Of a DNA stretch of 38,438 nucleotides, positions 26,266 to 31,473 are shown piece by piece. The notes beneath the pieces are model-generated. The model was given only the letters and a program-made list of their open reading frames with translations. It was not told where the DNA came from and ran no database searches. How positions within the stretch are numbered: position 1 is the stretch's first letter; each line of letters opens with the position of its first letter. This DNA comes from a virus (Duplodnaviria; Caudoviricetes): IMG/VR virus record IMGVR_UViG_3300049138_000079, positions 1 to 38,438 of that record; one strand, 5' to 3'. The position numbers and the translations under genes are program-made.

Positions 26266-26525
26266 TCCTTCGATGAGGTGTTGCTCTTCAGGGCTTGCTT
26301 CGCGGCCACGTACTCGGCGCTGGGTGGGTCTCCGTGGTCGAGAGACCGCCACGTCACCGGGTCTTGGGCGTGCCGGCACGGATGCGGCCGGATCGCATGC
26401 TGGCCGGACTTTGGTGCGTCGACGAACGCCACCCACGCCCCACGCCGGGCCGAGTACAGCCAGATGAGTGGGGAGCCGCAGGGGGCGCAGCCGGTGATGT
26501 TCGGCGGCTCCGGAATCTCGATCAC
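26262..26525 (-). CDS. Hypothetical protein (CxxCG.PLIW)
   Basis: GTGA coupling to the DUF5131 gene. Confidence 0.6.
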   Translation of the reverse strand: MIEIPEPPNITGCAPCGSPLIWLYSARRGAWVAFVDAPKSGQHAIRPHPCRHAQDPVTWRSLDHGDPPSAEYVAAKQALKSNTSSKE

Positions 26526-27322
26526 TGCGGGTACTCGTTCCAGATCTGGCCATCGAGCACCCGGCCGCCCGACTTCGGCGTCCGGCCGCCCCACTGCTTG
26601 AAGAAGAACGCGACGCCCGACCCGACGCACCGATCCCGCAGGTCCCGGATCCATGCCGGGTCGACCGGACGGGCGTTCGGCCCGGACTCGCCGCCGGCGA
26701 TCAGCCAGTCGATGCCAGTCAGGTCAAGCGACGGCAGCGGGCCCAGCAGCGGCTCGGCGGAGATGAACCGGACGTCGGCCGTCGTGTCCCGTAGTGCGTC
26801 GGCTCGGCGGGTGTAGTCGTCGGACTCAATCGACGTGCCGAGCCATACATTCGCCAGTGGCCACGACGGGAGTTCCCGGCTGGGTCCGTTCAGGTCGAGC
26901 GTGCTCTCGTGCAGATAGACTGAGGACCGCCACGCCAGGTCGTTCACGATCCGGGCCATCCGCTCCGGCCGCTTGGTGAGTACCTGGTACGTGTGCCGGG
27001 GTGTGGCCGCCATGACCGCGAAGACCTGCGCGACGAACTCGCGGGGCACCCGGGCGTGGAACAGGTCGGACATCGAGTTGACGAACACCGTCCGGGGCGT
27101 CTTCCACCGCAGCGGCTCGGTGAGCGTCGCTGGGTGCTGAGCCACACCGAACCCCGGGCCGCTGGTGCGCGGGTCGCCGTCGGTCTGGTACTTCGCCGAC
27201 CCCATTCCCTTCAACCGCTTCGCCAGCGTCAGCGCGTAGCAGTTGTCGCACCCGGGCGAGATCCGGTCACAGCCGGTCGTCGGGTTCCAGGTCTCTTCGG
27301 TCCACTCGATGGCAGTGCTCAT
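26522..27322 (-). CDS. DUF5131 / phage Gp37-Gp68 family three-Cys protein
   Basis: IEWT..TWNPTTGC..SPGC.NCYA, FVNSMSDLFH, LTKRPER, SAEPLL, GGESG and FFFKQWGG. Confidence 0.92.
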   Translation of the reverse strand: MSTAIEWTEETWNPTTGCDRISPGCDNCYALTLAKRLKGMGSAKYQTDGDPRTSGPGFGVAQHPATLTEPLRWKTPRTVFVNSMSDLFHARVPREFVAQVFAVMAATPRHTYQVLTKRPERMARIVNDLAWRSSVYLHESTLDLNGPSRELPSWPLANVWLGTSIESDDYTRRADALRDTTADVRFISAEPLLGPLPSLDLTGIDWLIAGGESGPNARPVDPAWIRDLRDRCVGSGVAFFFKQWGGRTPKSGGRVLDGQIWNEYPQ

Positions 27323-27894
27323 GACGCGTCTCCTACGAGTCGGATGTGGCGGCGGTTGCCGGCGGGAAGTCCGCAGTCGGCGCATTCGCCGAAGCGGGCG
27401 GCGACGAACGGGTGGGTTTGCTGCGGGTCGGGGGCGTCCGAAGGGCGCACGTCCCCCGACCCGGAACCCCCCTTTAGGGGGTTCGGGTCGGGTCGGGTCG
27501 GGGTTACGAACTTCGGCCGAACGTTCGCCCGTTGTTCGCCCGAACCATTCCGGCCCTGGCCTGCGGCTTTACGCTGCGCCCTCAGTTTTTGCATCCGTTC
27601 TCGTGCCGCCCTTCTCTCCTCCTCGACGGCGCTTCGTTCCGGGTTGAAGTCGTGCCAGTCGTGGAATCGGTAGCCGCCCCGCGTCCTTTTCCACAGCCCT
27701 GTGGATACGAGTTCTTTCGCCAGCGACTCCGAGTCGGGGAGCAGTCGCGGGAGTACGTGGTCGGGTATGAACCCGTCGGACAGGTTCGCCCCCGACCACG
27801 ACCCGGCGACTACCCACAGACCCAGCGCGGCCGGCGACGTCGCCAGCACCTTGGGGTGGGAGTGGAACGAGTCGTCCACCTTCATCCACGTCAT
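27319..27894 (-). CDS. Replication initiator-like protein (actinophage RepA-type)
   Basis: W.KVDD.FHSHPK..ALGLW..DGFIP..LV..GLW..FHDW winged-helix N-terminus; PTRPDP linker. Confidence 0.75.
   Translation of the reverse strand: MTWMKVDDSFHSHPKVLATSPAALGLWVVAGSWSGANLSDGFIPDHVLPRLLPDSESLAKELVSTGLWKRTRGGYRFHDWHDFNPERSAVEEERRAARERMQKLRAQRKAAGQGRNGSGEQRANVRPKFVTPTRPDPNPLKGGSGSGDVRPSDAPDPQQTHPFVAARFGECADCGLPAGNRRHIRLVGDAS
27451..27546. repeat. Inverted and direct repeats inside the initiator gene (candidate origin)
   Basis: CCCGACCCGGAACCCCC / GGGGGTTCGGGTCGGG imperfect inverted repeat, (TCGGG)x4, GTTCGCCCG x2. Confidence 0.45.
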
Positions 27895-28882: not shown

Positions 28883-29235
28883 CGCGACACCGCCGTCCGC
28901 CACAACGCACACGTGTCCGACGCCGCCCAAAACTGTTCGACGGCGGTCACGACTTCGGCGAGTCCGAGCAGGTCCCGGACCGGCTGGGTCCAGTCCGCGA
29001 CCGGCGCGACCCGGGCGACCAGGTCCCGGCAGCAGCCGAGACACATCGACTCCCGGCGCGACAACTGCCACCCCGACGCGACGTGCGTCAACGTCCACCC
29101 GCCCGCGTACAGGCCGGTGCCGTCGATCGCGGGCGTGATCGCCAGCCCCGGGGCGACGATCTCGCCGAAGATCGGCATGACGACCTCGACGCCGCTGATC
29201 CGGGCCCGGATGTCAATCAGCGCCAGCTCAGCCAT
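28879..29235 (-). CDS. Hypothetical protein
   Basis: GGAGG RBS; PGLAITP..WTLTHVASG..ADWT. Confidence 0.65.
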   Translation of the reverse strand: MAELALIDIRARISGVEVVMPIFGEIVAPGLAITPAIDGTGLYAGGWTLTHVASGWQLSRRESMCLGCCRDLVARVAPVADWTQPVRDLLGLAEVVTAVEQFWAASDTCALWRTAVSR

Positions 29236-29530
29236 TCGCCACCTCCAACAGGACGTCGGCGTGACACGGCTGGTCGAGCGGGCACCAGCACGCCAGATCC
29301 CGACCAGCCAGTACGGTCCGGGCCCGCGCGACGTACGCCGGGGTATCCGTCACCAGCGCGCGGTACGCAGCGACCAGCCCAGCCGGATCACGCAGGTCCC
29401 GGTACTCGTCGGCGAGCCAGACGGGACGGAAGGTGTACGGGTTACCCCACTCCGTGGGCCGACCGACGTACACCGCCCCTTCCGGCATCCGCCAGCCGGC
29501 AGTGCGCTTCCGCTGGATCCGCTCAGGCAT
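29228..29530 (-). CDS. DUF4326 family protein
   Basis: RIQRKRTAGWRMP..AVYVGRPT.WGNP...LAGRDLACWCP...CHADVL. Confidence 0.9.
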   Translation of the reverse strand: MPERIQRKRTAGWRMPEGAVYVGRPTEWGNPYTFRPVWLADEYRDLRDPAGLVAAYRALVTDTPAYVARARTVLAGRDLACWCPLDQPCHADVLLEVANG

Positions 29531-29888
29531 CGGTCACTCCCAGCAGTACCCGAGCCAGCTCGGATGCGGCGAAGGTCGGTCCCCGTTCGGCTTGCAGTTC
29601 CAAGAGCGCAGCGAGGTGCTGAGCTATGCCGGGATGCACCAACGCGATCCACGCTGCGTCGTTCCAGACGTTGCGTTCCCGATCCCACGGACTCCCACTG
29701 AACGTCGGCAGCCACGCCACCAAATCGCCGCTGCCGGGCTTGCCGGTGAGGACTGTCGCCGCGTACCCGCCGGTGTTGCCGAGGTGCGCGTCGTGGGTTC
29801 GCCACGGACCCGGCGTCGCCGCTTCACCGAACTCCCGCAGCACCTTCGCTGCTGCTCGTGGGGTCTCTACCGAAGACAACTCAGCCAC
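29523..29888 (-). CDS. Ead/Ea22-like hypothetical protein
   Basis: AATPGPW...DAAWIALVHP..LAALL; AAGGGAG RBS. Confidence 0.65.
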   Translation of the reverse strand: MAELSSVETPRAAAKVLREFGEAATPGPWRTHDAHLGNTGGYAATVLTGKPGSGDLVAWLPTFSGSPWDRERNVWNDAAWIALVHPGIAQHLAALLELQAERGPTFAASELARVLLGVTDA

Positions 29889-30531
29889 GAGGGCTCCCTT
29901 CGAAAAGTTGGTGAAAGATCGACGGCCGGCTGTCCAACTCATCGAGCCAGCCGAGCAGCCGACGCAGGTTGACCTCTGGGCCGAACGCCAGATAGGTCCC
30001 ATCGGCCGAGTGGCAGCCGAACGCTTCAGCGATTCGGAGACGAGTGATCGAGTTGACCCGGCCCATGTGGACCTGCTTGCCGCGATCCCGGGCCTCACTG
30101 GTCAGCAGGTGCGCGACCGGGCCCACCTTCCACTCCGTGGTGCCTGCGAGAAACAGCACGTCAAAGTCGTCCCACGGGATCAGTCCGTCTTCGCATCCGT
30201 CTTGAGCTGCGTACGCCGCCGGGACGCCGAGCTGCCGAATCCGTCCGAGCCACGGCCGAGATTCGACGTAGGTACCGGCGGCGTCGAACGGGACGTCGGG
30301 GGCGACAGCCCACGCACATCGGCGGTTCCCGTACTCATCGACCTGGCCTTGCAGCCACGTCCACCACCGCTCCGGACCGGGCCAGCCCTTCCCGAACTTG
30401 CCGTTGTCGGCAGCCCAGCGAGCGCCGGTTGGGATCCGATTACCTTGCGCCGGAGTGGTCATGCAGTCGAGCAGTCCTCTACTCATCGCTGCCTGCACCT
30501 CAGGCCCGCTCGGGGTGCCGAAGTAGCGCAC
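29881..30531 (-). CDS. Small TGT/DpdA-like barrel protein (putative base-exchange transglycosylase)
   Basis: Ordered motifs WAADNG.F, VAPDV, AQDG, LAGTTEWK, VHMGRVN and SADGT resemble the TGT/DpdA DSG, substrate-Asp, HxxG and SxDS motifs. Overlaps the VUT transporter gene. CDS is secure; function is inferred. Confidence 0.55.
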   Translation of the reverse strand: MRYFGTPSGPEVQAAMSRGLLDCMTTPAQGNRIPTGARWAADNGKFGKGWPGPERWWTWLQGQVDEYGNRRCAWAVAPDVPFDAAGTYVESRPWLGRIRQLGVPAAYAAQDGCEDGLIPWDDFDVLFLAGTTEWKVGPVAHLLTSEARDRGKQVHMGRVNSITRLRIAEAFGCHSADGTYLAFGPEVNLRRLLGWLDELDSRPSIFHQLFEGSPRG

Positions 30532-31012
30532 GGCCCACCACCACCGGGATGACGACCGCCGCCGTGACGGCGGTCTTGGCGAGCATCTGACCGGGCAGCG
30601 CCGACCAGATCGGGAAGCCGGCCAGGGCCAGGAACAGCAGCGTGTCCACGGCGGATCCGACGAGCCCGGACAGCAACGCGGCGCGGCCCCATCCCTTGCG
30701 TCGGAGTGGCTGGTAGACGAGCGTGTCGGCGAGTTCGGAGACGGCGAACGCGACACCGGACGCGAACGCCAAGCGGGGACCGGCGAGAACCGCGCTCACC
30801 ACCGCGCCAGCGACGACACATCCGGCGACCGCGAGCCGGCCGGCGAGGTCGTGCACGAGGTCCCGGGCCAGCAGCACAAGGCCCGCCGCGTACGTGCCGG
30901 CGGTCGCGGTGAGTCCGAGCCCGACGGGGATCAGCCCGTAGCGTGCCGTCAGAACGTTCGCGGCGACCACGCAGATCAGGAATGCCGCGACGGCGGCTAG
31001 ACGGGCGCTCAC
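30500..31012 (-). CDS. yhhQ: VUT-family (YhhQ-like) queuosine-precursor transporter
   Basis: VVAAN, AG...G..L.ARD.VH, A.AS..AF.VSEL.D..VY, S..VGS.VDT..F..LA and GQ..AK motifs; multiple TM segments. Confidence 0.85.
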   Translation of the reverse strand: MSARLAAVAAFLICVVAANVLTARYGLIPVGLGLTATAGTYAAGLVLLARDLVHDLAGRLAVAGCVVAGAVVSAVLAGPRLAFASGVAFAVSELADTLVYQPLRRKGWGRAALLSGLVGSAVDTLLFLALAGFPIWSALPGQMLAKTAVTAAVVIPVVVGRALLRHPERA

Positions 31013-31473
31013 GGGTGGGTTTCCTCTCGGGTAGTGGGCCGGGGTCCGAACGTGATGACGCGGATGCCCTCGGCTTCGCAGCGTTCGAGGCAGTCGGCGG
31101 TGCCGTGCGTCCCGTGCGGTCGCGGCCGCCGGCACCGCTCCGACTCGCACGGGTTGATGAACGCCAAGCACACGTCCGCGCCGAGCTCGACCATCCGCTG
31201 ATTCCGCTCGTGTCCGGCACGGTTGCCACGGGTCCGCCACTCGGCGCCGGTGACGGGGTGGGGTTCGTGGTCGACGGGCCAGCCGATGTGCTTCCTCGTG
31301 GCCGCCCACACGCCCGCTGACGTGTCCGCACCCTTCGCCCCGCCGTGGACGACCGTGACGCCGCTATAGCCGCTCTGGGCCGCCGCACGGGCTATCTCGT
31401 CGAGCGCCGTGGTGACCGCGTCGAAGTCCTTCCACGACCGCGACCCGGTCACGATCACCCGCATGTGGGTCAT
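31009..31473 (-). CDS. SLOG-superfamily (DUF2493/YspA-like) protein
   Basis: VIVTGSR.W, VVHGGAKGAD, AG..RNQRMV..GAD.CLAF and HGTADC motifs. Confidence 0.88.
   Translation of the reverse strand: MTHMRVIVTGSRSWKDFDAVTTALDEIARAAAQSGYSGVTVVHGGAKGADTSAGVWAATRKHIGWPVDHEPHPVTGAEWRTRGNRAGHERNQRMVELGADVCLAFINPCESERCRRPRPHGTHGTADCLERCEAEGIRVITFGPRPTTREETHP

Follow-up and report, generated by a model that had tools for sequence, protein, structure and literature searches.

Gene content of the locus

The virus record IMGVR_UViG_3300049138_000079 (Duplodnaviria; Caudoviricetes) was analyzed over its full length of 38,438 bases, hereafter the window. It is a whole virus record with a GC content of ca. 69% and a completeness rating of 90%, and it encodes terminase, portal, capsid, and tail genes. 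Its early region lies on the minus strand and contains annealing protein, HNH, replication initiator, and WhiB-like genes. There we studied three overlapping genes, one of which encodes a small protein (hereafter, the mini enzyme) predicted to be related to tRNA-guanine transglycosylase (TGT) and to the DpdA proteins of phages:

29881..30531, minus strand: predicted miniature TGT/DpdA-like guanine transglycosylase, 216 aa (AF2 model, hhalign to phage DpdA1, conservation)
30500..31012, minus strand: short VUT/YhhQ-like membrane protein, 170 aa (Pfam Vut_1, E 2e-12)
31009..31473, minus strand: YAcAr-family SLOG protein, 154 aa (Pfam PF10686, E 8e-14)

The three genes and their overlaps agreed with the original prediction, which had been made from the sequence alone. 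The SLOG and VUT genes share 4 nt (GTGA) and the VUT and mini-enzyme genes 32 nt; an overlap of 20 to 55 nt between the latter two was seen again in 35 of 58 viral pairs. The GC content at third codon positions was coding-like in all three (0.76 to 0.88). Gene callers start the mini enzyme at ATG 30486 (201 aa), but we favor GTG 30531 (216 aa) as its probable start, because both the N-terminal strand and the overlap with VUT are conserved.

The Pfam scores exceeded their cut-offs for SLOG (51.6 versus 28.2 bits) and for Vut_1 (48.1 versus 27.2 bits). With four strong hydrophobic segments, the VUT protein is of the short phage type and homologous to the 159-aa putative preQ0 transporter of Escherichia phage CAjan (hhalign E 1.8e-16; E 7e-8 for Escherichia coli YhhQ), and it scored below the NCBIfam equivalog cut-off for queuosine precursor transporters (TIGR00697, 37.9 versus 50.95 bits). 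The prediction that folE, queD, queE, and queC are absent from the window was borne out: profiles built from fetched loci detected no QueC, QueD, QueE, FolE, QueF-like, or DpdA1 protein in it, and PF01702, PF23859, and PF20314 had no match anywhere along its length. Palindromic 6-mers (1590 observed versus 1850 expected) were uninformative about modification. The nearest homologue of the mini enzyme in a named genome belongs to Micromonospora rubida (73% identity), so a related actinomycete is the likely host.

Conserved pairing of VUT and the mini enzyme

For loci carrying the mini enzyme, neighborhoods were surveyed in 66 genome loci and in 80 viral ones, the best of 243. The viral set is partly redundant (L079 is identical to L080, and L005 to L085), 76 of the 80 calls have a context that looks intact as far as their 6-kb flanks reach, and several loci end early. 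A VUT gene lay at ≤700 nt from the mini enzyme in 59/80 viral loci, and VUT was found in 14/66 genome loci. In an independent sample of 361 Micromonospora-family genomes, the enzyme was present in 24, with VUT at ≤1.5 kb in 21 of them. The linkage proposed in the original prediction thus holds, and VUT and the mini enzyme form a real two-gene cassette.

The reverse survey covered the best 80 of 217 VUT-anchored loci and is biased by its query, which was derived from VUTs adjoining the mini enzyme. These loci contained the mini enzyme (57), a PF23859-type DpdA (20, of which 3 were confirmed by Pfam), or DpdA1 together with que genes (1); of the remaining two, one ends at a contig edge after a QueF-like gene and one has a DpdA-like open reading frame (ORF) recognized by motif. 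Among the 51 loci new to the first set, 28 had the mini enzyme. Since the same VUT adjoins either the mini enzyme or the PF23859-type DpdA, the two DpdA types appear to be interchangeable partners. At locus L279 (3105-3983), a motif-only DpdA-like ORF with no Pfam match is directly upstream of VUT.

Fold, motifs, and ancestry of the mini enzyme

The motifs ADNG, APDV, HMGRVN, and SADGT, noted in the original prediction, are all present in that order. All of 120 diverse homologues have D79, Q110, H155, D177, and G178, and 118 of them retain D42. As had also been noted, the C-terminal Cys/His zinc site is missing: there is no Cys beyond residue 180 and no match to PF01702, and only 2/120 homologues have two or more Cys after the last Asp. 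The AF2 model (mean confidence score, pLDDT, 89) is an eight-stranded (beta/alpha)8 TIM barrel with no zinc subdomain, in which the conserved residues sit at the C-terminal ends of strands 3 to 8. We predict Asp42 and Asp177 as the catalytic residues and N43, F46, D79, Q110, G130, and H155 as the pocket.

The 120-row family profile matched that of seven canonical phage DpdA proteins with a probability of 89.9 and E 1.7e-6 (hhalign). Against the CAjan-type DpdA, the score was 48.9 versus a maximum of 24.2 over 25 column shuffles, and the alignment paired D42/D63, N43/S64, F46/F67, D79/D105, Q110/H132, G130/G154, and H155/H187 (mini enzyme/CAjan). Six of these seven CAjan positions (all except H187) are named as pocket or catalytic residues in PMC7544227. 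The CAjan numbering was checked with the phiG7 DpdA, which is identical to it at 305/306 positions. A forced alignment with E. coli TGT (non-significant, E 0.54) paired D42/D89, D79/D143, G130/G214, and D177/D264; we take E. coli D89, D143, and D264 to be Zymomonas D102, D156, and D280. In this way, the Asp after strand 3 (Zymomonas D102/CAjan D63) and that after strand 4 (D156/D105) have aligned counterparts in D42 (118/120) and D79 (120/120), and the nucleophile Asp after strand 8 (D280/D206) corresponds to D177 (120/120) by sequence alignment, without three-dimensional superposition. At the TGT specificity positions (L231/A232 in PMC5699537), the mini enzyme has Thr-Thr.

In the fold searches, many TIM barrels reached Z values of 12 to 15, and the matching chains included pyruvate kinase (Z 15.1, root mean square deviation 3.1, 200 residues aligned), PdxJ (14.4, 2.8, 183), TGT 3s1g (14.3, 3.1, 200), Cap10 (14.2, 3.8, 205), arcTGT (13.6, 3.7, 204), and the bacterial DpdA 7ui4 (12.3, 3.0, 193). 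The top 50 Foldseek matches in the PDB were generic TIM barrels only, and PDB sequence searches with the protein or the 120-row profile gave nothing meaningful. The structural check suggested in the original prediction therefore confirmed a TIM barrel without singling out TGT/DpdA among barrels, and the assignment rests on sequence instead. On that basis, the proposed TGT/DpdA ancestry is supported, by the match to phage DpdA and the conserved Asp motifs.

Family size, distribution, and relation to described DpdA proteins

The mini enzyme has no Pfam family at E ≤ 0.01 and no NCBIfam family, and it matches phrog_15826 (function unknown, 2e-87). We recovered 2,728 homologues among 3,251 candidates, and 2,269 clusters among 50%-identity representatives. 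Family members occur in 27 GenBank phage records, many labeled "DpdA-like tRNA-guanine transglycosylase," and in 175 plasmid records. Fusions to QueF-like proteins (2), QueC (1), a methylase (1), and polyvalent-protein domains (InPase, ART-PolyVal) were also found, some of which could be read-through artifacts. In the polyvalent proteins P0277, P0278, P0280, and P0282, the mini enzyme is a domain beside InPase or ART-PolyVal. Its presence in such large proteins suggests delivery together with the DNA, and the spread over phages, plasmids, and polyvalent proteins fits an anti-defense role. Plasmids of Deinococcus and megaplasmids of Pseudomonas, pQBR103 among them, carry distant homologues without VUT (L291, L292, L293). 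Several Streptomyces copies are seemingly broken by stops or frameshifts (L121, L137, L141, L143, L145-L147, L150), which suggests weak selection outside phages.

Compared with the DpdA1 of Escherichia phage CAjan, 9g, and Rosebush, the mini enzyme has a common barrel, both catalytic Asp motifs, and the pocket residues in order. However, DpdA1 is ca. 306 aa long (versus 216 aa), its motifs are DSG, FH, HAFG, and DSS (versus DNG, AQDG, HMGR, and DGT), and its phages have the que genes that the window phage lacks, although some phages carry both enzyme types. Three rounds with a DpdA1 hidden Markov model (HMM) did not collect the family, and the reverse match reached just E 0.0016. The singleton DpdA of group 3 phages (Orion and the cluster K mycobacteriophages, PF23859) likewise comes with no biosynthesis genes, the same VUT subfamily, and actinobacterial hosts; it differs in its C-terminal Cys/His cluster, the mini enzyme does not match PF23859, and the profile similarity is only E 6e-4. 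DpdA4/DUF6610 (HVTV1_69) was the nearest named ESM Atlas cluster (0.91; 193/256 features) and has Asp-Gly at the nucleophile motif, but the mini enzyme does not match PF20314 and its hhalign comparison with HVTV1_69 was non-significant (E 0.23). By these sequence comparisons, the mini enzyme belongs to none of DpdA1, PF23859, and DpdA4, with DpdA2 and DpdA3 outside the direct comparison; the phiST protein M4SLA5 (E 1e-3) appeared in the viral fold search.

Among other known systems, Cap10 of the type IV cyclic oligonucleotide-based antiphage signaling system (CBASS) is a zinc-less TGT barrel and the top, though tied, fold match. It is, however, a host defense protein acting on a deazaguanylated CD-NTase, and the loci covered by the scan had no CBASS genes near the mini-enzyme family. 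Bacterial Dpd restriction-modification islands insert 7-deazaguanines by means of a TGT paralogue and have YhhQ in ca. 9% of cases (PMC11888242); the cassette differs in having no DpdB, DpdC, or restriction genes, and PADLOC gave no match for the mini enzyme, DpdA included, or for VUT.

The suggestion that the family might be new stood only in part. Homologues with 50 to 55% identity (cluster P mycobacteriophages, Aoka gp40, Sonali gp81, ReqiPine5 gp03) are already called "DpdA-like" by SEA-PHAGES, usually with VUT upstream and with no SLOG neighbor, and are known by annotation; the family was not found in the DpdA tables of 2019 and 2023. DpdA-only phages, as well as YhhQ in some phages, are described in PMC6884629. 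A search of the supplements of that paper recovered Orion and Finch, used as controls, but none of ReqiPine5, Ksquared, Majeke, StevieRay, Sonali, and R6L. Sheet DS1 of PMC10516641 lists DpdA1 to DpdA4 and none of the phages found here. Our literature search, whose coverage excluded a 2024 review (PMC10966956) and bioRxiv supplements, found no study of the mini-enzyme family; further literature for comparison is 10.1101/2025.04.06.647259 and PMC12839542. The concept is already known, and the mini-enzyme subfamily is uncharacterized.

7-Deazaguanine genes and precursor supply

Genes of 7-deazaguanine metabolism (QueF-like, QueC, QueD, QueE, FolE) were found as neighbors or fusions of the mini enzyme, in line with the proposed connection to 7-deazaguanines. 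Near the enzyme, QueF-like proteins occurred in 10/80 and QueC/D/E in 4/80 viral loci; in seven of the 80 (L073, L074, L077-L081), an 80-aa protein without any Pfam match showed a QueF-like Cys-Pro/Asp/Glu pattern. A QueF-like gene is also present in Aoka, a phage of Arthrobacter globiformis. The mini enzyme is combined with que genes, and DpdA1 not detected, in two records rated 88% and 70% complete. The 5,200 first nucleotides of phage L082 contain three tandem mini-enzyme paralogues, two QueC, QueE, QueD, and a nucleoside deoxyribosyltransferase, again with DpdA1 not detected. When the 80 records were ranked by length, the top 50 included 3 with QueC and 1 with DpdA1, so most of these phages would rely on an outside supply.

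A gene resembling 3′-phosphoadenosine-5′-phosphosulfate (PAPS) reductase adjoins the enzyme in 30/66 genome loci, on conjugative elements that also have SSB, DprA, and Mom nearby. The product is a PP-loop protein of ca. 410 aa (L107 4676-5908 and 29 other genome loci) in Streptomyces plasmids and integrated elements, and Aoka, ReqiPine5, and R6L have related genes close to the enzyme. In two Queuovirinae-type phages, the mini-enzyme gene is downstream of the canonical dpdA; in phiG7 (L152 3645-4291) it is split in two ORFs, as in SHIN8, and in R29Z (L153 3923-4857) it is intact and followed by a SLOG gene. No family member was found in the 12.5 kb surrounding dpdA of CAjan.

Strong QueC matches were rare in the likely hosts (10/101 Micromonospora-family and 16/121 Streptomyces genomes); most would therefore lack preQ0 of their own, and carrying an importer would be sensible. 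We examined 11 of the strongest actinomycete QueC loci (L297-L307; seven belonging to cassette carriers, two to VUT-less carriers, and two to the background; PADLOC run on 30 selected of 140 ORFs). All 11 were Dpd restriction islands with queCDE-folE2 clusters, and 3 contained a short phage-type VUT 45 to 47% identical to that of the window. Host Dpd islands are thus a more likely source of precursor than the toyocamycin/sangivamycin-type antibiotic pathway that had been suggested.

In a first sample, QueC at E ≤ 1e-70 was present in 7/12 genomes with VUT plus the enzyme, versus 5/33 VUT-less carriers and 7/121 background genomes (p 2e-5 versus background). This sample took 12/14 VUT-bearing and 33/52 VUT-less loci, omitting one repeated genome, one genome from outside the actinomycetes, and copies that were short or broken. 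A replication in 722 genomes found bacterial DpdA in 3/23 VUT-plus-enzyme genomes versus 24/676 (p 0.054), or 2/22 (p 0.20) after removing a genome already counted; these statistics ignore kinship, and Dpd islands occurred in only 14 of 361 genomes per sample. Cassette carriers were thus strongly enriched in Dpd islands in the first sample and non-significantly in the second; the enrichment was set aside, and mimicry of the Dpd mark is a lead rather than a result.

The SLOG gene and other neighbors

SLOG had been proposed as a member of the system, which the survey did not uphold. It was near the mini enzyme in 0/80 viral loci within ca. 6 kb and in 2/66 genome loci, non-adjacent in both; it occurred in 4/50 whole records (the longest of the 80), and neither VUT nor the mini enzyme was found at any of 38 SLOG-anchored loci. 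With linkage negative in both directions, SLOG was rejected as a core part of the cassette and is likely an incidental passenger of the early region. It was close to the cassette in only three further places (L268, L308, and Vibrio phage R29Z), which we read as shuffling of common early genes. According to PMC7824862, YAcAr proteins are predicted to act on NAD+ and are tied to DUF4326, a family predicted to connect NAD+/SLOG systems and DNA modification. The DUF4326 gene of the window would be a likelier partner of SLOG than the cassette. Two neighbors are listed here:

29228-29530, minus strand: DUF4326 gene, two genes downstream of the cassette
26522-27385, minus strand: DUF5131 radical-SAM-like protein (PADLOC candidate defense models PDC-M41B and PDC-M30B, E 1e-94 or better)

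Proposed function and alternatives

From the two genes, their conserved pairing, the fold predicted for the mini enzyme, and its homology to DpdA, we consider the cassette to be, with reasonable probability, a scavenging 7-deazaguanine DNA-modification module. VUT would import preQ0 or preQ1 as the 7-deazaguanine base, which the mini enzyme would exchange for guanine, presumably in phage DNA. By analogy with TGT/DpdA chemistry, Asp177 would attack C1′ and release guanine, while Asp42 would activate the incoming base. The modified phage DNA may then be protected from host restriction. Because the phage makes no base of its own, the source would be external, and the genomic context points to the medium or a host Dpd island. 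Whether the DNA is modified would therefore depend on supply. A parallel is Orion, whose lone DpdA left its DNA unmodified in Mycobacterium smegmatis, with no feeding test reported in the sections of PMC6884629 covered.

Several results weigh against this reading. The direct profile match to TGT is non-significant (E 0.54 to 0.59), and in the significant hhalign alignment DpdA D206 falls three columns from D177. The fold search ties TGT-family chains with pyruvate kinase and PdxJ, and places DpdA 7ui4 lower. In both alignments, Gly157-Arg158 replaces the stacking Met/Phe-Gly of TGT and DpdA, so the pocket would differ from theirs, although a shift of one residue would put Met156-Gly157 at that site. 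Four phages (Sonali, with gp81 and gp87; L059; R29Z; and phiG7) carry the mini enzyme alongside a canonical DpdA1, which hints at a separate job for it. Strong QueC is missing from 25/33 genomes with VUT-less copies (scored on QueC alone), and singleton-DpdA phages showed no modification (Orion) or 0.02% (7-11) (PMC6884629).

The coexistence with DpdA1, the three tandem paralogues in one phage, and the Gly-Arg in the pocket where Met-Gly is expected could also be explained by another target or direction of the reaction, such as RNA modification, removal or editing of marks, or a different modification at guanine sites with the PAPS-reductase-like PP-loop protein, which lies at ≤700 nt in 30/66 genome loci, mostly in VUT-less conjugative elements. 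We regard this as unlikely, since the same VUT adjoins PF23859 DpdA interchangeably, the zinc subdomain used by tRNA TGTs for dimerization is lacking, and PF01702 had matches in just 3 of 101 genomes from the probable host family, one or more of these matches being the DpdA of a Dpd island. A tRNA-TGT role as the leading explanation was rejected for want of the zinc site. A non-catalytic sink or decoy, with the barrel as a Cap10-like binder of 7-deazaguanines or of deazaguanylated proteins that would blunt type IV CBASS or QatABCD while VUT drains or supplies the pool, seems highly improbable. Cap10 heads the wide fold search, is also zinc-less, and has a His beside the nucleophile, and fusion into injected polyvalent proteins would suit such a role; but its lead is only a tie, the nucleophile Asp is invariant (120/120), and the QueF-like and que neighbors indicate that the base is made and used rather than destroyed.

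A system of all three genes, in which SLOG would act on a salvaged nucleotide to free the base that the transglycosylase uses, has very little going for it. The 4-nt overlap in the window, the SLOG-VUT-enzyme order also present in the unrelated phage L268, the enzyme-SLOG order in R29Z, a SLOG ca. 0.5 kb downstream in L308, and the nucleoside deoxyribosyltransferase among the L082 paralogues speak for it, and against them stand the linkage counts given above and the predicted action of YAcAr on NAD+ with its link to DUF4326. Mimicry, whereby the phage would put the 7-deazaguanine self-mark of the host Dpd system on its own DNA using preQ0 from the island or, where the host is Dpd-negative, imported preQ0, is a tentative possibility. 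It draws on the 11 Dpd islands at strong QueC loci, the same short VUT in three of them, and the QueC excess of the first sample, and it is tempered by the weak replication, the uncorrected kinship, and the scarcity of the islands. In its widest and equally speculative form, the mini enzyme would be a fifth, minimal phage DpdA subfamily (>2,000 clusters in phages, large plasmids, and injected polyvalent proteins) that, with an importer stolen from Dpd islands, forges the host self-mark; it would then be the smallest enzyme for DNA base exchange and the first counter-defense to defeat Dpd restriction by mimicry.

Significance

The surveys of 2019 and 2023 took DpdA as the signature of 7-deazaguanine DNA, and the mini-enzyme family was not found in their tables. 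If the mini enzyme is active, a scavenging 7-deazaguanine DNA-modification module would extend this type of modification to temperate actinophages and plasmids, and a DNA transglycosylase of 200 aa would serve as a compact labeling tool. Why phages of preQ0-less hosts keep a DpdA becomes a question that can be tested with cultured phages of M. smegmatis and Arthrobacter.

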